Virus genome (UHGV): UHGV-0125199
DNA from: a virus
Length of the DNA: 64,000 nucleotides
Direction: 5' to 3' (one strand)
In this document: positions 5,197 through 52,029 of the stretch, in pieces
Numbering within the stretch: position 1 is the stretch's first letter
Layout of the letters: every line of letters starts with the position of its first letter
Program-made: the position numbers and the translations under genes
Notes under the pieces: generated by a model
Seen by the model: only the letters and a program-made list of their open reading frames with translations
Told to the model about the DNA's origin: nothing
The model's database searches: none

Positions 5197-5847
5197 ACCG
5201 TACTGTTGACTCGCAGCGCTTAATGTAATATCACCAATCACATCAAATGCTGTGTCTAATGTTTTTGGCTCGTTATACCACACATTACCCATTTCGAATC
5301 CACCACGCATTACTTCTGCGACATTAAACAAGCAACAGTTCATCGTATCCCTTCTAGCTGACATGTCATGAATATAAATATATCCATCATTGATAGCCTG
5401 CCTTTCTTCTACTGTCAGGAAGAATTTCTTATACAACTGCTTGTTCAATTCATTAAATACAAGACTTCGCTTTGTAGATACGAGAGCACTATCAGTGTTA
5501 CTGTTTTCCTTATCCCCGATGTACATAATTTTCTGACTCTCTTCGTATACCGTATCCATCATATGTACAAAATCAAGTTTATAATTACGATATTGCTGAT
5601 ATTGATATCCTACTTTTGGAAACAAATCAAGAAGTGTTTTTTCTACAATATTATGAATAAAACCTACAGGAACTTCATCATTCTCAAAGTCTTCTTCATC
5701 AACCTCGTTAAGAACTCTGTTGCAGATCATTCCATATTCATCTTGTGAAAATGTAAAATTTTCTCTCTGTGCAGATTTATCAATAGCATTAATAATTTTC
5801 TGTTCGTTATACTCTTCTAGTGTTCCATCCTTCTTAATTACCTTCAT
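5197..5847 (-). CDS. nrdD: NrdD exon 1 (ATP-cone N-terminus to ...SQQYG)
   Basis: 'MKVIKKDGTLEEYNEQKIINAI' ATP-cone; body aligns to the NrdD N-terminal half. Confidence 0.75.
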
Positions 5848-5865
5848 TAATCACATCATCCTTTC

Positions 5866-6081
5866 TTACTTCTGAGAACTATCTTTTGCTGTCTTCGTTG
5901 TAGTTCTAGTTCTTTTGGTTTTCTGTTCCGTTGCATTATTCGCTTCTTTCGGTTCGTTTTCTTCCAAATCTTCATCATCAGAATCAGACCATTCATCATG
6001 ACTTTTGTTACTTCTAGTCACATCTGTGCCTTTGAGTGCACGAATACATTTTGTGTTACAACGCATTTTATTTGATGCCAT
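5866..6081 (-). CDS. hypothetical Ser/acidic-rich small protein
   Basis: 71-aa ORF in chain. Confidence 0.3.
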   Translation of the reverse strand: MASNKMRCNTKCIRALKGTDVTRSNKSHDEWSDSDDEDLEENEPKEANNATEQKTKRTRTTTKTAKDSSQK

Positions 6082-6211
6082 AATTTGCAGAATTCGGAAA
6101 ATTAAAACATCCCATTTTTAGCCTTGTTATAACGGTAATAATTTTTTCTATTACTGTTATAACAAGGATTCCAGGGGTTCGGGGATGGAAGATCCCCGTA
6201 TTATTTCTGCA

Positions 6212-6355
6212 CTATTTATTTTTCTGAAAATGGCATATTATAATGTGCTGATCAACACATTTTGCAACACCCTCAAACAGCGCCCAGATTGGGATCCACA
6301 TTGTTGTACCGATTGCGAAAATCACTGTACCCAGTTGATTAAAATCCATGTTCAT
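6212..6355 (-). CDS. small hydrophobic protein (47 aa; not in the ORF track)
   Basis: Strong RBS GGAGGTGAG immediately upstream of ATG; MNMDFNQLGTVIFAIGTTMWIPIWALFEG... has a single TM-like segment. Confidence 0.35.
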   Translation of the reverse strand: MNMDFNQLGTVIFAIGTTMWIPIWALFEGVAKCVDQHIIICHFQKNK

Positions 6356-6356
6356 C

Positions 6357-6548
6357 TCACCTCCTAACAAAACCACTACCACCATCTCTCACGTTTAAAC
6401 ATAAATGAGAGGTATCATCAATATTTCCATGTGTTTTCGTGTGTCCAATACTATCAATTACATATTCTTCTTCTCCTAATCTAACTGTGACGAAATCATC
6501 AGGATACATACCCAATTCTCGCATCAACATGCCACTTGTTCTAATCAA
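6357..6548 (-). CDS. hypothetical protein
   Basis: 63-aa ORF in chain. Confidence 0.25.
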   Translation of the reverse strand: MIRTSGMLMRELGMYPDDFVTVRLGEEEYVIDSIGHTKTHGNIDDTSHLCLNVRDGGSGFVRR

Positions 6549-6553
6549 TTTAT

Positions 6554-7108
6554 CTATTCTCCCTCTCTCGTTTTTAAATATTCAAATATTTCATCTACTA
6601 AATCATCGATATTTTTACCGTCGTTGTTATAAAAGATTCTATCTGCTAATTCTTCCGCACCTTTAAAATCTTTATTGTCATGTAAAATCCTACGATCAGC
6701 TTCTTCTTTTTTATCTCCACGTTTGGATAATCTGTTTCGAATTGTCTTATTATTTGCGTATATATAAATAGAAATGTGTTCATCTAACTCGTCCTTGATG
6801 TCTCTATAACCATCCGGAGTTAGAATCACGATTGATTTGTTATCAGATCTGGATATTTCATCTAGGGGAGAACCATAATACCACGTCCCGTCTACTGTGT
6901 TATATTTCTTCCACTCTGCAAAATATCTTGTATTAGTAAGCTCTTTAAATTCATCAACGGTAATAAACTTGTAATCAACTCCATCAACTTCACTTTTTCT
7001 TGCCGGTCGTGTTGTGGTGGTAACAATTTTCTTAAATCCTCTTTTTACAAGTTCATCAACAATTCTGCTTTTCCCGCTTGCTGTTTTACCAAAAATAATA
7101 ATCGCCAT
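6554..7108 (-). CDS. Guanylate kinase-like nucleoside monophosphate kinase
   Basis: P-loop 'GKTASGKS' and 'TTTTRPARKSEVDGVDYKF' guanylate-kinase signature. Confidence 0.7.
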   Translation of the reverse strand: MAIIIFGKTASGKSRIVDELVKRGFKKIVTTTTRPARKSEVDGVDYKFITVDEFKELTNTRYFAEWKKYNTVDGTWYYGSPLDEISRSDNKSIVILTPDGYRDIKDELDEHISIYIYANNKTIRNRLSKRGDKKEEADRRILHDNKDFKGAEELADRIFYNNDGKNIDDLVDEIFEYLKTREGE

Positions 7109-37230: not shown

Positions 37231-38535
37231 TTACATTGCTTCCTCCATCAGTTCTTCAGCCTCTTCCATATCCGGAACATCTGAAGTATCTTTAATAATT
37301 GATTCAATTACCTTAAACTCAAACACTTTGTCCTTATAAGCTGTAAATGATTCTCTATTGTCAATACGTACAACCACACCTTCAGCAATGTGCGTTCTTC
37401 CAATTTCGTCTGCCGGCATACCAGATAAATATTTATTCACTCTTTCCATTAGATCTTCTTTTGTTGTATAAATAAATTTTTCTAATTCTGGAACATATTT
37501 TACACCAAGTTTATCACACCAAATTTTAACCACTTCCCAAGGAACTTCCATTACTGTTCCATCACCGGTTGTCATAGTCATACGATAAACATACATCTCA
37601 GATTCTCCTGGCTGACAACCATAAGAAAATGTTGTCTCTTTCCCAAACTTCTTTGTAAACTCTTTATCTTTGACTTTTGAATTTGATGCAGAACCCATAA
37701 TTGGTGTAGTCTCATTTACATATCCTACAATTTCGTAAAACACTTCACATCCTTCAGGTAATTTATCCTTTAATAAATCATGATATTTTTTTCTGAATGC
37801 ATTATCAGAATAATATCCATCTGTGCTATTCAAATCTTTAATTACAACTCTTCTACTTCCAGACACAACAGAAATTTCTTTTGTCTGTTTCTGTTTCATA
37901 TGTAATAATTCTCTCAATTTATTGTTCTTCTTTGTGATTTTTAATGTCTTAGCAGTACGAGCAGAAGTTCCATGAAGCTTACGTGTAATATAGATCGTAT
38001 CGCCAGGCTTAAAAGAATTTAAATTATATGCAAGCTGCGCAGTATCTTTATGTTCTTCAAAAAATGGATAGGAAATATTTTCTTTATACTTCTCTTTCTT
38101 TTTATTAGAGTTAATATTACTCCTTTTATTTCCTCTTGGAATATACTTTTTACAAATCTCATGTCCTCCAAGAACTGTAATTTGATCTCCATCTTTCAGT
38201 TTATTAATATCAGTATATTTCGAAAGTGTATCAATTGGTAAAATCAGTCCTTCAGATTTTTCACCTCTTAATCTGATTGCGGTTACATTTCTCTTATTTG
38301 GATCCATATAACCACCAACGTTATTACCGTTTTCATCCTTTGCTCTCACAAGTTTGTTGTCATTTGCATACTCTTCAGAAAGCTGTCCATCAGACGGAAA
38401 GAATACAACCCTCTGTCCATCTTTATAACTCAAATCCACAATTACATTCTGTCCGAATACCTCTACACACTGTAAACGGTCAGCATTGCTATGTTTTCTT
38501 AATCCTTTAAGTGTTGTAATATATCCACAATACAT
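37231..38535 (-). CDS. RNA ligase (Rnl2/Rnl5-like KxHG nucleotidyltransferase) with N-terminal tRNA-binding OB-like domain
   Basis: N-terminal 'RKHSNADRLQCVEVFGQ' resembles Trbp111/CsaA tRNA-binding OB. 'ITRKLHGTSAR' matches RNA ligase motif I KxHG[TS]. Confidence 0.55.
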   Translation of the reverse strand: MYCGYITTLKGLRKHSNADRLQCVEVFGQNVIVDLSYKDGQRVVFFPSDGQLSEEYANDNKLVRAKDENGNNVGGYMDPNKRNVTAIRLRGEKSEGLILPIDTLSKYTDINKLKDGDQITVLGGHEICKKYIPRGNKRSNINSNKKKEKYKENISYPFFEEHKDTAQLAYNLNSFKPGDTIYITRKLHGTSARTAKTLKITKKNNKLRELLHMKQKQTKEISVVSGSRRVVIKDLNSTDGYYSDNAFRKKYHDLLKDKLPEGCEVFYEIVGYVNETTPIMGSASNSKVKDKEFTKKFGKETTFSYGCQPGESEMYVYRMTMTTGDGTVMEVPWEVVKIWCDKLGVKYVPELEKFIYTTKEDLMERVNKYLSGMPADEIGRTHIAEGVVVRIDNRESFTAYKDKVFEFKVIESIIKDTSDVPDMEEAEELMEEAM

Positions 38536-38540
38536 AATTA

Positions 38541-39092
38541 CTATTCCTCTCTTTCATATTCGTCTACTTCTCTACATATCTCCCTATAATAATCAGATGT
38601 TCCATTTTCATATTTATCTCCATCATCTACATCTTTACAATATGGACATATATATCCTTCTCCGTTTTTAATAAGGATATCTGTTCGCATTAGCATCCCG
38701 CATTTATCACACACATCTACATCTTCAAATTCAACATCAAGTTCTCTTTTGATAATATCAATCTTATATCCTAGGATGAATTCTTTCTCAATTAAAACCC
38801 CAATTATTTCTGAATCAAAAATATCTGAATCATACCATTCCAGTGAATTTCTATAATCAAATAATTTCTTATTATCTGTGTCAATACAAGCTTTTCCAAA
38901 AGCTGCATACCACGAGCACGTTCCCGTCACATACTCAATTCCTTCGTCTGCAAAGTCATACGGTGATATTCCAGTAATTCGAATAAGTTGATATAAAAAT
39001 TCATTCAAAAAATCATCTGTGATCAAAATTTTAATATCTGATGGAATTGTATATTCAATATGTACACTATCTACACTTCTTACTATTGGCAT
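38541..39092 (-). CDS. hypothetical Zn-binding protein
   Basis: 'CDKCG..CPYC'. Confidence 0.3.
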   Translation of the reverse strand: MPIVRSVDSVHIEYTIPSDIKILITDDFLNEFLYQLIRITGISPYDFADEGIEYVTGTCSWYAAFGKACIDTDNKKLFDYRNSLEWYDSDIFDSEIIGVLIEKEFILGYKIDIIKRELDVEFEDVDVCDKCGMLMRTDILIKNGEGYICPYCKDVDDGDKYENGTSDYYREICREVDEYEREE

Positions 39093-42166: not shown

Positions 42167-42328
42167 TTAATTTATCCTCCACTCCTTCCCATGTAAATTG
42201 ACTTGTAATAAACTCATGGGTATATTTTTCCCCCAAGTTGTTTTATAATCAGTACGCATAAATTTGCCCATTTCGATTAAAGCATCGACAACTTTATTGA
42301 TATTAATTTCTATCATTTTCTTCTCCAT
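42167..42328 (-). CDS. small hypothetical protein (53 aa; not in the ORF track)
   Basis: ATG ORF 'MEKKMIEINI...HGKEWRIN*' abutting the next gene. Confidence 0.25.
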   Translation of the reverse strand: MEKKMIEININKVVDALIEMGKFMRTDYKTTWGKNIPMSLLQVNLHGKEWRIN

Positions 42329-42542
42329 TTGAAACGTGAGTTTCAATCAAATATCTCTGCAATATAATTATCTTTTTGAACTGTTGTTATTGTATTGCTA
42401 CATCCGTCTGTCCTAAATGTATATTCTCTCATATTGCATCTGCGCTCTTTTATTATTCCGGATTCGTATTCTTTTCGTATCTTCTTTGCATATTCTGTTC
42501 TTTGATATTTAAGACAGAAATATTCTTTCCCACAAACAGATT

Positions 42543-44237
42543 TTACTCTGTCTGTGGATTTATAAAATTTCCGGAATTAATATCCTCATATAACCTATCA
42601 AGTGCAATCTCAAATGCGCCAACACCTGAGAAAAAACTACTCAATTTCAAATTATCAAACAAATAAGGCATAGCTTTATAAAGCTCTACATATATGTAAT
42701 AAAGAACATCTACCACAATTGAATTGCCTGCCTGCTTATACAATTGACTATTTGAAACTCCTACTTTGTGTGCTGCGTCAAAATCTTTATCAGAAAATCC
42801 CATAAGTCTGAAGCACTCCTTTGGAGTTAGTTTGCGAATACGGATTGGAGATTCAATCTTACAAATACCAGTTTCTGTCGCAGTAATAGTTGGACTAATA
42901 TTCCCATCATCCTGGACTCTACCTCTTCTCGTTTTGCTATCTGGATAAGACAAATCTGCAACACCACCAATTTCACATTCGATATATCCCTGTTTTGTTG
43001 CTTGTTTGATTGCAACTTTGTTTCCTTCTCCTTTATTCGTAGTTAATGTTGGAGACAATCCATTTTCCGAATAAACAGACCCATTCATACCATTACCAGA
43101 TGGGTTGATATTCCCAATTTTTAGAACAGCAGTTCCTTCAGATTTTCTGTTGCTAATTCCTCTATCCTCTCTCGCTGCAATGCAATTTGCATATTCGATT
43201 AACTCTGGTTTATTATATGATTTATCAATTCCACATAATACATGTGGCTGTCTTCCACCACCTTGCATAGTCGTTAAAGTAGGACTAATATGACTATCAT
43301 CCCACACGCCTCCGGCATATCCTGTTCCGAAATCTTCTCGATTTACATTTCCAATAAATTTAGGTTGGTCAATTTCTACAACTCTTTTATCACCACATGA
43401 ATCAATTGTTCTTAATGCACCACATACATCATTTTTATAAGTTCGAAGCCCCTCATCTTCTCTTTCTTCACACACAAATTTATCATTTTGACTTTTCTCA
43501 TATTTACTTTCAATACTCGATATAAATTTTTGGGTTTTCTCATCAGAAATATAGAACTTCTCATCGACTTCATCTTCCAATAAATCCTTCAATCTTAATC
43601 CATTATCAAAAGGTTCTGGAAATTCAAACTTACCATTATCCAAATCCTTTTTAATAAATAACAGATACACACGTTCTCTGTTCTGTGGAATTCCATAATT
43701 TTTAGCATTCAGAACCTTCCAATATACGTTATATCCATATTCTTCTAATTCATCAGTAAATAATTTAAATGTTGTGTCTTTAAACTGTTTTCCAACGATA
43801 TTCTTTACATTTTCATAAATTCCAAAATTAGGTCTATTTGATCTAACTACTCGTAAATATTCAACAAGAAGAGATGATCTTGTCTTTTCAATATTTTTAC
43901 TTCCACAATTCGGACAACAATCTCTTTTACTCCAATGAACTGTTAATGGATTATATTCAAAATGCTTTCCATTATCATCCACACAATCTTTACAAGTCCA
44001 CACAGAGCCTTTTTGTTTACCAGCCACACTGAAATCCTGGCACGGTGATCCTCCACAAATCATATTAAAATTATCTAACTCAGTTTCATCAACCTTTGTA
44101 ATATCGCCAAGATTTTTACTTTCATCAACATTATGAATAGCACAATAACTTTTTGTTGCATATTTATCAAATTCACAAAAATTTACAAGTTCCCACTGTT
44201 TATCTGAATTATATTTTTTATCCTTATTTTCTACCAT
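42543..44237 (-). CDS. DNA (cytosine-5)-methyltransferase, apparently circularly permuted (motif I at C-terminus), with Zn-ribbon insertion
   Basis: PCQDFS (IV), YENVKN (VI), QNRERVY (VIII), 'RKLTPKECFRLMGF' (IX), 'GNSIVVDVL' (X), then C-terminal 'FFSGVGAFE' (motif I). N-terminus starts at motif II 'CEFDKYATKSY' with in-frame TAA and AGAGG RBS just upstream. Confidence 0.8.
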   Translation of the reverse strand: MVENKDKKYNSDKQWELVNFCEFDKYATKSYCAIHNVDESKNLGDITKVDETELDNFNMICGGSPCQDFSVAGKQKGSVWTCKDCVDDNGKHFEYNPLTVHWSKRDCCPNCGSKNIEKTRSSLLVEYLRVVRSNRPNFGIYENVKNIVGKQFKDTTFKLFTDELEEYGYNVYWKVLNAKNYGIPQNRERVYLLFIKKDLDNGKFEFPEPFDNGLRLKDLLEDEVDEKFYISDEKTQKFISSIESKYEKSQNDKFVCEEREDEGLRTYKNDVCGALRTIDSCGDKRVVEIDQPKFIGNVNREDFGTGYAGGVWDDSHISPTLTTMQGGGRQPHVLCGIDKSYNKPELIEYANCIAAREDRGISNRKSEGTAVLKIGNINPSGNGMNGSVYSENGLSPTLTTNKGEGNKVAIKQATKQGYIECEIGGVADLSYPDSKTRRGRVQDDGNISPTITATETGICKIESPIRIRKLTPKECFRLMGFSDKDFDAAHKVGVSNSQLYKQAGNSIVVDVLYYIYVELYKAMPYLFDNLKLSSFFSGVGAFEIALDRLYEDINSGNFINPQTE

Positions 44238-44384
44238 TTACCTCTATATAAGAGGTGTGTACACACATTTTACCTAGGATTACTCATTTGTCCTTTCTTA
44301 AATATCTATGTAATAAGACCATTTGCAACTGATCTGATTCAAATGAAAAATATATTTCAAATGACGTTCGCGACCGTCAATATA

Positions 44385-44762
44385 TTATTCTCTGTTGCTA
44401 TTTATTTTTTTCAGAATTTTATTTAACAATTCTGTAACTTCATCAAAATCACCACTTAATGATTCACCTGTTGTTTTAATTTGATAATTCCATTCATCCT
44501 TACGAGCCAATTCAATAGGTCTTCCATAATATAAAACAGTTCCTTGAGCCACTGTTACATCTTCATACTTTGAATAATAATCTTCTTTCAGAATCTTTAA
44601 CTGTTTCTGGCATCCTTTGTTGTATGATTTAACTTTTGGATCAAACAATGAAACATACTTATCTTTCCCATAATTAATTGGTTTGAATTTGTTTACAACA
44701 AGTAGAACTCCATCTGTTATTCTATATAAATCTTGATATTCTGTTTCTGCTAATACCTGCAA
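44385..44762 (-). CDS. hypothetical protein
   Basis: ORF. Confidence 0.3.
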   Translation of the reverse strand: MQVLAETEYQDLYRITDGVLLVVNKFKPINYGKDKYVSLFDPKVKSYNKGCQKQLKILKEDYYSKYEDVTVAQGTVLYYGRPIELARKDEWNYQIKTTGESLSGDFDEVTELLNKILKKINSNRE

Positions 44763-49725: not shown

Positions 49726-51215
49726 TAAAATTCTCCTCCATGTAGTCTATCTCTAATTTCTTTTAACGATTGTTCTTTTAATAATTCTCCATCTTTAAAG
49801 ACTGTAATTAACATATTTCCACGTTTTTCATAATCAGTAGCCTGTTTCCATGTAAGCTCATCCTCGTAATAAATACTTCCATCATATCGTGTATATACTC
49901 TGCAGCATCCTTTCTGTGATTTCTTAAAACCACCGTCCTTAGGATTTTTAAAAATTGGAGTAGCTTTTCCATCAATCTCACAATATGTTGCTTTAATACA
50001 AGAACTAAAAGTGTCTCTTGTAAATGGTTTTAATACTCCGTCTTCTTCGATGCACTGAAATGAAAACGACCCAACTCCTAATGCTACATTTGAACACGCA
50101 AATCCATTTTTCATAAGAATTCTGTAAATTTCTTCACATCTCTGTACTGTAATTGAGTCACCGTAAATTGCTTTTACATGTGGATCTAACACTTTATACC
50201 CCTTGCTATTAACTGTCCCACCAAATTCTTCCCATAATTTAAATACAGTTTTTGTTACAACTTCTACACAATCTCCAGAATCTCCACGCATCAACATGCA
50301 TCCGTTATGATTCATGATTTCTGTTTTTAATTGAGGAAGAATATTATCGATGATATTCCAATAATCATAAGAGTCAAGAACTGCTGAAAAACTTGTGTTT
50401 GGATAGATTTCAGTAAGTAATCTTCTTAATAATGTAATCTCGTCTCCATCTACCGCATAATTACTGCACATTACAGAATGTTCTGTGCTAGGACTTCCAT
50501 ATGCAACAGGTTCTTTTGTACAATCACAAAAATAATTCTTTTCAAGATAAGGAATAGTTGGAACGGTTGCTGTATTCAAAAATGATAAACACCACCCAGC
50601 GCCTGCTTTTACCGCTGATTCCAAACACTCTTCTCCCCGGAAGTCAAAGGCACCAAGAGCTTTTGATCTTGGAATATAGTCATCACAAGTTAGACCATAA
50701 TAGTGATTAACGATGCTACGATAGGTCATTCCTACTGTTGCTGCTAACATTGGATGCCACATTTCTGCCGAGATAAGACTTTCTAAACTCTGAGGTAACC
50801 ATGCAAAATCTTTATGTGTATTTGTAATACCAAACATAGGCACATGCATTGGAACAATTGTACCTTCTGGCAATGAAACAATCTCAATTGGCAAATATCC
50901 CAATTTATGTAGACTTTCAATCTTGTCAATTTTATACGCATCCTTACCAAGTGATGCATCCATAATTCTTTTATATTCATAAATAATTTCTTCAAAAGGT
51001 TTGTCAAAAAATTCTTCATTGAAATAATCAATCAGATACGTTTTAATAAACCCCTGTAATCCAAACATTACTACTTTATCCCATCGTTTTACACGACTCA
51101 TTCTAGGAGTAAAATAGGAAACTGATTTTGTAATATTTTCAGGTAGCATTTCTGCATGAACCGCTTTATAAAAGTCAATTAATAACATTGGATTTGTCTT
51201 ATTCGTCATATTCAA
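49725..51215 (-). CDS. Nicotinamide/nicotinate phosphoribosyltransferase (type II PRTase; NAMPT/NadV or PncB family)
   Basis: 496 aa, size and composition typical of NAMPT/PncB. Between prs and nadE. Family-level call only. Confidence 0.65.
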   Translation of the reverse strand: MNMTNKTNPMLLIDFYKAVHAEMLPENITKSVSYFTPRMSRVKRWDKVVMFGLQGFIKTYLIDYFNEEFFDKPFEEIIYEYKRIMDASLGKDAYKIDKIESLHKLGYLPIEIVSLPEGTIVPMHVPMFGITNTHKDFAWLPQSLESLISAEMWHPMLAATVGMTYRSIVNHYYGLTCDDYIPRSKALGAFDFRGEECLESAVKAGAGWCLSFLNTATVPTIPYLEKNYFCDCTKEPVAYGSPSTEHSVMCSNYAVDGDEITLLRRLLTEIYPNTSFSAVLDSYDYWNIIDNILPQLKTEIMNHNGCMLMRGDSGDCVEVVTKTVFKLWEEFGGTVNSKGYKVLDPHVKAIYGDSITVQRCEEIYRILMKNGFACSNVALGVGSFSFQCIEEDGVLKPFTRDTFSSCIKATYCEIDGKATPIFKNPKDGGFKKSQKGCCRVYTRYDGSIYYEDELTWKQATDYEKRGNMLITVFKDGELLKEQSLKEIRDRLHGGEF

Positions 51216-52029
51216 ATACCTCTACTTTCTCATGTTCTTTTGTAAAAATACTATTTGTCGTGAACACTCTGTCAATCAATCCACTACTCAATACTTCTCC
51301 TTCGAGGATTGTATTTTCACAATGAGATACATATAGATAAATCTCCTTTGCTCCCAGTTCCTTTAACTTAATAGCTGAATGATAAAATGTTCCGCCACGA
51401 CTTGAAATATCATCTACAATTAAAATTTTTCTTCCTTTAATCAGATTTGTCATGCCTGAAACATCTAGTCCTTTAATCTCCCCTGTTTCCCAATCGCGCT
51501 TTTTAATACCAAAAGCATAAGGAAGATCAAACATTGTAGAATAACGTTTCATAGCTCCTTCGTCCGGATAGAACATTGTAAGATTATTTGTGCCACCAAT
51601 GTATTCACTTTCAATCGCTTTCCACACATATTTGTCTGGATATTTAATTAAAACTCTATCAATAAGAGCTTCGCTTACAGATGAATGTGGATCTAATACT
51701 GTTACAGAATCAAAATTCAGCCAATTAATAACTTCTGCAAAATACTTTAATGTAAATACATCTTCTGTTGTTTTAACACGATCTTGACGACTGTTTGGAA
51801 TATATGGCATATTCAAGTACAAATTTGTAATACCATGAGAATTAAGGTGTTTGACAATATAAATCAATGTCACCAATTCTTCATTATCTTCAAACAACCA
51901 GGTAATAGTTGCTTCTCTGTAATTTTTAAAATCATAAGAAACATCCTCTTTAAGCAAGAGAGTTCCATCTGGAAATTTCTTTGTATTTACTACTTCTCCA
52001 TTAATTTTAATCATAAGACTTTTCTCCAA
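51199..52029 (-). CDS. prs: Ribose-phosphate pyrophosphokinase (PRPP synthetase)
   Basis: PRPP-binding 'ILIVDDISSRGGTF' motif. Confidence 0.85.
   Translation of the reverse strand: MEKSLMIKINGEVVNTKKFPDGTLLLKEDVSYDFKNYREATITWLFEDNEELVTLIYIVKHLNSHGITNLYLNMPYIPNSRQDRVKTTEDVFTLKYFAEVINWLNFDSVTVLDPHSSVSEALIDRVLIKYPDKYVWKAIESEYIGGTNNLTMFYPDEGAMKRYSTMFDLPYAFGIKKRDWETGEIKGLDVSGMTNLIKGRKILIVDDISSRGGTFYHSAIKLKELGAKEIYLYVSHCENTILEGEVLSSGLIDRVFTTNSIFTKEHEKVEVFEYDE

Follow-up and report, generated by a model that had tools for sequence, protein, structure and literature searches.

How can a C5-cytosine DNA methyltransferase work if its chain begins at motif II and ends with motif I, and what is the meaning of a reading frame that stays open beyond its stop codon? 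These questions are raised by a gene in UHGV virus genome UHGV-0125199, from which a stretch of 64,000 nucleotides (hereafter the window) was analyzed; the gene, like every other feature of the window located below, lies on the minus strand (42543..44237). We read it as encoding a permuted, orphan phage C5 methyltransferase with multiple target recognition domains (TRDs), in which a programmed -1 frameshift would give isoforms of 564 and 631 aa, and we put the probability of this explanation as a whole at roughly 0.72.

Motif Order and Start of the Gene

The 0-frame open reading frame (ORF), which ends in TAA at 42545..42543, encodes a protein of 564 aa that matches Pfam DNA_methylase (PF00145) with E = 2.5e-60. 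Alignment to M.HhaI and reading of the sequence give the order II-IV-zinc-ribbon insert-VI-VIII-three TRD-like modules-IX-X-I. The first conserved motif is motif II (FCEFDKYA, residues 20–27, 44157..44180), which aligns to M.HhaI residues 35–45; the protein starts 14 residues before it, and relatives start about 10 residues before it. Motif IV (GGSPCQDFS, residues 62–70, 44028..44054) contains the catalytic Cys66, and is followed by motif VI (IYENVKN, residues 140–146 with ENV at 142–144, 43800..43820) and motif VIII (QNRER, residues 185–189, 43671..43685). Next comes a variable region of about 230 aa (42846..43535) with three TRD-like modules (ISPTLTT, LSPTLTT, ISPTITA) of the [ST]PT[LI]T type; its content varies among relatives, and modules are gained and lost even among otherwise near-identical ones. 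Motif IX (IRIRKLTPKECFRLMGF, residues 465–481, 42795..42845) aligns to M.HhaI 270–285, and motif X (QAGNSIVV, residues 502–509 with GNSIV at 504–508, 42711..42734) follows. Motif I is found only after motif X, where the chain reads LKLSSFFSGVGAFEIALDRLY (residues 530–550) and then has nine more residues to the stop. The relocated unit consists of strand beta-1 (LSSFF), the FSGVGAFE loop and helix alpha-A (residues 532–555, 42573..42644), and was recognized by its invariance, by AlphaFold and by its alignment to M.HhaI 11–34 after re-permutation; FFSGVGAFE itself (535–543) ends 21 residues before the stop.

Consistent with this order, the alignment of the native chain covers M.HhaI from motif II (residue 35) to motif X (residue 318). 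The catalytic motifs IV, VI and VIII and the S-adenosylmethionine (AdoMet) motifs I (FSGVG, 536–540) and X (GNS, 504–506) are all present, while the linear I-to-X order that is canonical for PF00145 is absent. An earlier note on this DNA, made from the sequence alone, had proposed the same arrangement, with the series from II through IV, VI, VIII, TRD and IX to X followed by an FxGxG motif I at the C-terminus, and both the sequence and the M.HhaI alignment bear it out. Together with the structural model described below, they support the view that the 564-aa product is a natural circularly permuted C5 methyltransferase, with motif I moved behind motif X.

The same note had held that the ORF begins at motif II, with a ribosome-binding site and an in-frame TAA directly 5′, and that no N-terminal motif I had been overlooked. 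Indeed, a GAGG ribosome-binding site (44244..44241) and an in-frame TAA (44240..44238) together occupy 44238..44244, immediately 5′ of the ATG, and a second in-frame stop lies two codons 5′ of that TAA. All three frames of the 147-nt spacer upstream of the ORF contain stops and lack motif I. An upstream intron or exon carrying motif I was considered and is ruled out by the in-frame stops, the lack of an upstream motif I and the identical start in relatives; likewise, the missed frameshift to an upstream motif I exon that the note had named as a possible refutation was tested and is rejected.

The zinc-ribbon-like insert of about 36 aa (43899..44006), C82-x2-C85…C108-x2-C111, had been noticed as well, and is real: the M.HhaI alignment breaks between HhaI 92 and 91–93, which places it in the catalytic loop, behind motif IV and ahead of motif VI, where it replaces one or two loop residues. 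Its four cysteines are invariant among close relatives, and AlphaFold renders it as beta-hairpins with a predicted local distance difference test (pLDDT) score of about 90; Pfam zinc-ribbon matches to it are weak. The insert is optional in the family, being missing from 8 of 31 aligned members. Among 80 viral loci, 20 genes with no motif I upstream contain it, and the 36 canonical genes all lack it. An extra DNA contact or stabilization of the loop may be its role, which is only a guess.

Conservation of the Permuted Family

The best 120 database proteins (74–100% identity) are all permuted; they start near WELVNFCEFDKYA and end in …LKLSSFFSG[IV]GAFE…INSGNFxNPQTE, and some carry NCBI names for Mediterraneibacter gnavus and Coprococcus. 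The last 110 residues were also searched against 1.84 billion 50%-identity representatives. This gave 8586 matches, of which the best 150 were inspected; about 145 of these 150 have motif X followed by motif I 32 residues on, and those that are complete begin about 10 residues ahead of motif II. The permuted order is thus that of at least about 145 protein clusters (50% identity) of Clostridia phages or prophages, and chance is excluded. Six residues of motif I (F536, S537, G538, G540, A541 and E543) are invariant in 31 aligned members with identities down to 44%, and so are P65, C66, E142, N143, V144, Q185, R187, R189, G504 and N505 of motifs IV, VI, VIII and X. The architecture also occurs in IMG/VR contigs of 87–204 kb, in ENA, in Logan assemblies and in NCBI isolate genomes and metagenome-assembled genomes (MAGs), and an identical protein (P0002) represents 93 member sequences. 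A megablast search of the GenBank phage collection returned no near-identical phage DNA.

Some members are interrupted. In P0051, P0052, P0070-P0072, P0084, P0154 and P0191, an intein (Pfam Intein_splicing, Hint_2) sits exactly at the catalytic cysteine of motif IV (GGSP/C…N/CQDF), so that the +1 extein residue is the methyltransferase nucleophile. P0157 (629 aa) has a homing-endonuclease-like domain of HNH/AP2 type, about 230 residues long, inserted in frame after helix alpha-A and ahead of the conserved terminal …INTGNFTKPQVE, just upstream of the place where the frameshift cassette described below would be expected. In the relatives L012-L018 (e.g., L013 3980-5830 and L016 3965-6195), the II-VIII half and the IX-X-I half lie in different frames, and TRD-like modules are scattered over all three frames, between and after the halves; L013-L015 end in …DRLYAEI[QN] before the stop and have modules in the +1 frame. 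These split-frame relatives could be pseudogenes, split two-subunit enzymes or genes with further recoding sites.

Predicted Fold and Cofactor Pocket

An AlphaFold2 run on the 564-aa product, with the alignment of the 31 members as input, modeled the catalytic domain at pLDDT 85–98 and the motif X helices at 88–97. The relocated segment is modeled with similar scores: residues 530–535 (pLDDT 90–95) are assigned as strand or bridge by DSSP, and residues 541–555 form a helix (pLDDT 96). In Foldseek, the best structural match of the model is M.HhaI, with a template modeling (TM) score of 0.65 when normalized to the target. We also re-permuted the sequence in silico by moving residues 524–553 ahead of residue 13 and removing the insert; the result aligns to M.HhaI 11–209 as one collinear stretch that includes beta-1, FxGxG and alpha-A. 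A link from helix X to beta-1 restores the alphaZ-beta1 connection that is usual in class I methyltransferase folds.

The chain would start at strand beta-2 (motif II) and, once past the motif X helix, run on through strand beta-1, the AdoMet loop with FxGxG and helix alpha-A, parts that lie at the N-terminus in canonical enzymes. This C-terminal segment would fold back to its usual place in the Rossmann sheet because the termini of C5 methyltransferases adjoin in space. In this way the C-terminal motif I would complete the cofactor pocket. A C-terminal segment unable to reach the cofactor site, the other refuting scenario of the earlier note, finds no place here, given the confident AlphaFold tail and the collinearity of the re-permuted sequence with M.HhaI.

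A TRD Module in the -1 Frame

The gene does not seem to end with its 0-frame stop. Starting at the SGNF codons, the -1 frame is open for 75 codons up to a TGA at 42345..42343 (ORF at 42343..42570), reads …KFYKSTDRVKSVCGKEYFCLKYQRTEYAKKIRKEYESGIIKERRCNMREYTFRTDGCSNTITTVQKDNYIAEIFD, and encodes one further TRD module (…CLKYQRTEYAKKIRKEYESGIIKERRCNMREYTFRTDGCSNTITTVQKDNYIAEIFD). A ribosome changing frame there would make a trans-frame product predicted at 558 + 73 = 631 aa, with the junction …SGNF-YKSTDR… (…INSGNFYKSTDR…). In the window and in the relatives read, the stretch of the -1 frame from its preceding stop to the module has no ATG, GTG or TTG.

What the module is follows from its homology to the segments between motifs VIII and IX of relatives: the -1 peptide matches these segments in P0263 (54% identity, E = 5e-18), P0266 (55%, 1e-19) and P0237 (66%, 2.5e-20), and BLAST matches of -1 peptides of the family to internal TRDs reach E = 6e-21. 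The earlier note is therefore wrong in stating that no methyltransferase continues in the downstream frames. Pfam and PDB searches with the -1 frame peptides alone returned no match; TRD modules are too variable for these libraries, and the identification of the module comes from BLAST to the internal variable regions of relatives. A phmmer search of the gene product against all frames of the window also missed the downstream module, because this module type is absent from the protein's own in-frame TRD set.

Within the genes of the window, an open -1 run spans 6.7 codons on average, and a run of at least 75 codons is found at 0.23% of positions (chance 0.0023). The ratio of nonsynonymous to synonymous substitution rates (dN/dS) is 0.01–0.16, at dS of 0.4–3, for the window's module in ten distinct nucleotide versions; under neutrality, such a set of sequences would not exist at these dS values. 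Judged from these sequences, this selection shows that the -1 modules work as protein.

Relatives with the downstream part in frame point in the same direction. In P0272, the chain …SENFTQPQQKVKSNSGCGENK… leads directly on to two modules, P0273-77 and some further members have one in-frame module between …INSEN and a second …NENFTQPQQK end, and in P0154, P0188, L012, L016-18, L036, L041, L052 and L055 helix alpha-A continues into modules without any cassette. In P0197, only about 25 residues occupy the internal TRD place, and one module is found at the C-terminus. We searched for relatives of P0197 to see whether C-terminal TRDs suffice; it forms a singleton cluster, and the argument for their sufficiency therefore stays weak. 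Taken together, the homology to internal TRDs and the arrangement in P0197 suggest that the C-terminal module recognizes DNA.

The Proposed Frameshift Cassette after Motif I

At the conserved SGNF codons, six codons before the 0-frame stop, lies a slippery heptamer A_AAT_TTT (42564..42570), which is read as Asn557-Phe558 in the 0 frame and as AAA TTT in the -1 frame; the 0-frame sequence here is GGA AAT TTT ATA AAT CCA CAG ACA GAG TAA AAT CTG TTT GTG G. After a 6-nt spacer, a hairpin of 11–12 bp follows (42530..42557; supported by folding and covariation), in which CCACAGACAGA (42557..42547) pairs with TCTGTTTGTGG (42540..42530) around a GTAAAA loop that contains the 0-frame TAA. The minimum free energy of the 76-nt stretch is -23.3 kcal/mol, compared with -9.6 ± 2.4 for shuffles (z = -5.67). 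In the segment 42500-42575, CCGGAAAU, which overlaps the slippery site, can also pair with AUUUCUGU downstream of the hairpin to form an outer helix. A_AA.U_UU.U is one of the H_HH.U_UU.Y heptamers, which Sharma et al. (2014; PMC4066793) rate as efficient in E. coli. An X_XXY_YYZ heptamer, a stimulatory structure 5–9 nt downstream and a conserved -1 ORF without a start, by which a frameshift site can be recognized, are all present. An Rfam scan of 42200..44500 gave no known recoding element, the only match being a sub-threshold one to SNORA72 on the other strand, which we take as chance.

The cassette is conserved. A_AAT_TTT is identical, with the stop six codons later, in 13 of 13 distinct relatives with a GNF or ENF tail, all found through protein similarity, and contig L128 (87 kb, IMG/VR) has a cassette and a -1 peptide identical to those of the window. 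A pattern scan of IMG/VR for the cassette found 63 loci with 46 distinct contexts; in 45 of these 46, and in every one of sufficient length, the -1 frame is open for 50–199 codons, with one to four modules of about ten recurring types. The same pattern matched nine species-representative genomes. Eight are Clostridia (Lachnospiraceae, Oscillospiraceae, Lacrimispora, Angelakisella and others), all with open -1 TRD frames, while the ninth, a chance match in an unrelated gene of a Thermodesulfobacteriaceae MAG, has a -1 frame that shuts after 3 codons and no hairpin, and thus serves as a built-in negative control. Over 29 distinct sequences, 94.4% of stem cells are paired, versus 38–49% when the partner is slid. 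Double-sided changes occur at 4 of the 11 stem pairs (e.g., G-C to A-U six times at one pair), and none of 500 shuffles gave a covariation score as high as that observed.

Some relatives vary the theme. L106 (313-545, minus) has two complete heptamer-hairpin cassettes in series, each followed by a module, the first -1 module ending in …NDENFTKPQMD and a stop; with this arrangement, two frameshifts would follow one another, or a ladder of three isoforms would be made. In the near-identical protein P0001 (594 aa), CAA replaces the TAA stop, giving an apparently meaningless 0-frame readthrough of 30 residues, and this natural variant would abolish normal termination inside the hairpin loop. Lastly, L027 (3629-5266) and L153 (5730-7403) encode multi-TRD enzymes of canonical order, in which motif I is N-terminal and the motif X helix is directly followed by the same cassette and -1 TRD modules; cassette and trailing modules thus form a portable unit that does not depend on the permutation.

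The cassette resembles those of dnaX, of IS3-family transposases and of the phage tail-assembly chaperones G/GT in its X_XXY_YYZ heptamer, 6-nt spacer, downstream stem-loop and C-terminally extended product, and in the existence of lineages with fused frames. Unlike those, it sits in a DNA methyltransferase gene and adds a predicted DNA-recognition module that can be exchanged, and one cassette may follow another, as in L106. A literature search for a frameshift in a C5 methyltransferase found no case, most subscription journals being outside its reach.

Genomic Context

All but two of the long ORFs in the window are on the minus strand. The neighbors of the methyltransferase gene are small proteins without a family, and within 8 kb there are genes for a nicotinamide phosphoribosyl transferase (49728-51221, minus; PHROG 448, E = 1e-157) and an RNA ligase (37234-38553, minus; PHROG 968, E = 4e-65), both auxiliary functions of a kind usual in large phages. 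Near the methyltransferase gene there is no evident gene for a restriction enzyme, and the context as a whole agrees with an orphan methyltransferase of anti-restriction function in a large phage or prophage of Clostridia. In the close relatives L081 and L082 (1-900) and L081-L086 (about 5600-6700), Dam-type (MethyltransfD12) and N6/N4 methyltransferase genes lie a few kb upstream and a 3′-phosphoadenosine-5′-phosphosulfate (PAPS)-reductase-like gene lies downstream, which suggests a cluster of DNA-modification functions.

Relation to Known Methyltransferases

With M.HhaI and other canonical PF00145 enzymes, the phage protein shares all catalytic and cofactor motifs; M.HhaI is its best sequence and fold match, and the re-permuted large domain is collinear with it. 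It differs from them in starting at motif II, in having motif I after motif X, in the 36-aa insert and in the multi-module variable region of about 230 aa. The closest annotated phage relatives are the multispecific Bacillus phage enzymes SPR, phi3T, rho11s and H2 (30–34% identity over residues 14–519, E down to 1e-82). These are also orphan phage enzymes with TRD modules in a row, and the modular exchange of TRDs seen here matches the established pattern of that group; the phage enzyme has the several tandem TRD modules between VIII and IX that characterize the SPR/phi3T type (three modules, 230 aa). The four Bacillus phage enzymes differ in having the canonical I-X order and are not known to carry a zinc-ribbon insert or a frameshift cassette.

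Permuted C5 methyltransferases are rare, and the II..X-I order is unusual among them, as the earlier note had remarked in agreement with a published survey. In that survey, 20,677 REBASE entries were searched for motif X before motif I, and 27 natural enzymes were found, all permuted in the variable region, while the other topologies made in the laboratory seem not to occur in nature (Slaska-Kiss et al., 2018; PMC5944983). The authors proposed that these natural type H permutants arose by duplication and truncation, and noted that the two termini are close in space. The type H enzymes (M.BssHII, M.Alw26I, M2.Eco31I, M.Esp3I and M2.BsaI) are likewise circular permutations of the same fold with the same proposed origin, but their break lies in the variable region, with IX-X before I-VIII, whereas the phage enzyme is broken between I and II and thus falls outside type H. 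The plant enzyme DRM2 is also a permuted fold. In DRM2, motifs VI-X precede I-V, whereas in the phage enzyme IV precedes VI, which sets it apart from the DRM arrangement; matches to DRM2 are weak (E about 1e-3).

Parallels to this break have been engineered. Tandem-fused and permuted forms of M.MpeI and M.SssI are active, including cp35M.MpeI and cp33M.SssI in vivo; the new N-termini of these two lie ahead of the II/III site used in cp62 and cp58 (Slaska-Kiss et al., 2018). These type A constructs share with the phage enzyme an N-terminus before motif II; their break between I and II is deduced from the position of cp35 before cp62 and from the authors' statement that every inter-motif segment is represented. 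They differ in being artificial, poorly soluble and derived from monospecific CG enzymes, whereas the phage family is natural, diverse and evidently selected. Our literature search for a natural I/II permutation of a C5 methyltransferase found none; most subscription journals and REBASE were outside its reach, so a prior description is possible.

As to origin, the permuted family would most likely have arisen by tandem duplication followed by truncation at both ends. The gene call of P0192 reads a contiguous IX-X-I-II-IV-Zn-VI-VIII, with the I-to-II junction …FSGIGAFESALDRLFADVGGGYELVNFCEFDKYA…; a tandem duplicate, or a truncated copy followed by a canonical one, would look like this, which fits the duplication-and-truncation model.

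Discussion

Taken as a whole, we propose the following course of events. Ribosomes translating the permuted gene would reach A_AAU_UUU six codons before the stop, followed by the 6-nt spacer and the 11–12 bp hairpin, and a fraction of them would slip to the -1 frame at Asn557-Phe558. Slipped ribosomes would add 73 residues with one more, fourth, recognition module, so that two isoforms of 564 and 631 aa would result. The enzyme would methylate phage DNA at several short sequences and in this way evade host restriction, and the long isoform probably adds or changes a specificity. We infer both that frameshifting occurs at the cassette and that the enzyme is active.

Several observations weigh against this proposal or reduce the force of the evidence for it. 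The set used for dN/dS was picked by amino-acid pattern, which biases dN downwards. Conservation of the hairpin is inflated, because its 3′ arm also codes in the -1 frame, and the scan pattern fixed part of its 5′ arm. In L001 and L002, the -1 frame is open although a canonical heptamer is absent. The TRD region was modeled at pLDDT below 50. Judging from the M.HhaI architecture, the end of alpha-A would lie away from the DNA cleft, which makes the route of a tethered module to DNA problematic; a linker of about 20 residues could bridge this distance.

Other explanations of the locus differ in how much of it they leave functional. A sequencing or assembly artefact, by a missed frameshift or a misjoined contig, is of practically no weight: the same architecture in independent assemblies (NCBI, ENA, Logan and IMG/VR), together with the 93 member sequences behind P0002, already refutes it. 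The C-terminal motif I might instead be what is left of a second methyltransferase gene that decayed and was fused to the first by a deletion, giving an inactive relic with no usable AdoMet loop. A degraded tandem copy would indeed leave a TRD fragment downstream, and many relatives have broken frames in the TRD region; yet the six motif I residues are as strictly invariant as the catalytic Cys and ENV, the arrangement is kept in at least about 145 clusters, the C-terminal unit is modeled confidently, and some members maintain inteins at the catalytic Cys, which implies selection on the host protein. We consider a relic very improbable. Nor do we think it likely that the permuted enzyme works while the -1 module is an untranslated remnant of the ancestral duplication, with no frameshift. 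Permutation by duplication does predict leftovers of a second copy, and the long form is so far predicted from sequence, but against this stand the runs of 50–199 codons in every true relative versus a background mean of 6.7, the low dN/dS at dS up to saturation, a shuffled module content with the frame kept, the heptamer, spacer and hairpin conserved with compensatory changes, and the in-frame fusions.

Two further possibilities accept the module as functional and differ in how it is made or where it acts. It could be expressed by another route, such as independent or non-AUG initiation, termination-reinitiation, transcriptional slippage or phase variation at the DNA level. L001 and L002, which do without the canonical heptamer, open their -1 frame with TTG, and L013-L015 have their downstream modules in the +1 frame, so some relatives speak for such a route; in the window and the relatives read, by contrast, no start codon precedes the module, and the geometry of heptamer, spacer and hairpin is that of a classical -1 signal. 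Transcriptional slippage in particular meets the objection that a run such as AAATTTT is too short for the polymerase. We regard these routes, even jointly, as quite unlikely. The beta-1/alpha-A unit could also complete a second protomer, in a domain-swapped dimer or chain, with the C-terminal TRD modules acting on the catalytic domain of the partner. This would explain how modules tethered far from the cleft function, here and in the canonical-order cassette carriers L027 and L153, but the monomer model packs the unit with high confidence and the engineered permutants work without evidence of obligate swapping, and we give a domain swap little credence. Our preferred reading remains a permuted enzyme extended by a probable programmed -1 frameshift.

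The gene combines a natural I/II permutation of a C5 methyltransferase with the addition of a recognition module by what is probably a programmed -1 frameshift. Among DNA methyltransferases, the C5 enzymes count as the most uniform, and in this phage family we find a large, selected natural group broken between I and II, a topology otherwise known, in the literature searched, only from engineering; soluble templates for split or permuted methyltransferase tools would already be at hand in this group. The permutation itself may have been fixed because it provides a free C-terminus next to the original termini. The findings also bear on annotation, since these genes are labeled plain 'DNA (cytosine-5-)-methyltransferase' and their -1 extensions are uncalled, and they raise the structural question of how a C-terminally tethered TRD reaches DNA. 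More tentatively, at somewhat less than even odds in our estimate, a large family of Clostridia phage C5 methyltransferases, permuted and canonical alike, may use a portable -1 cassette to hang exchangeable TRDs on the C-terminus, outside the VIII-IX site, so that one gene gives isoforms with different sets of specificities; if so, a TRD could work from a position used by no solved C5 methyltransferase. The frameshift cassette would then be a new way for phages to diversify their anti-restriction methylation from a single gene.

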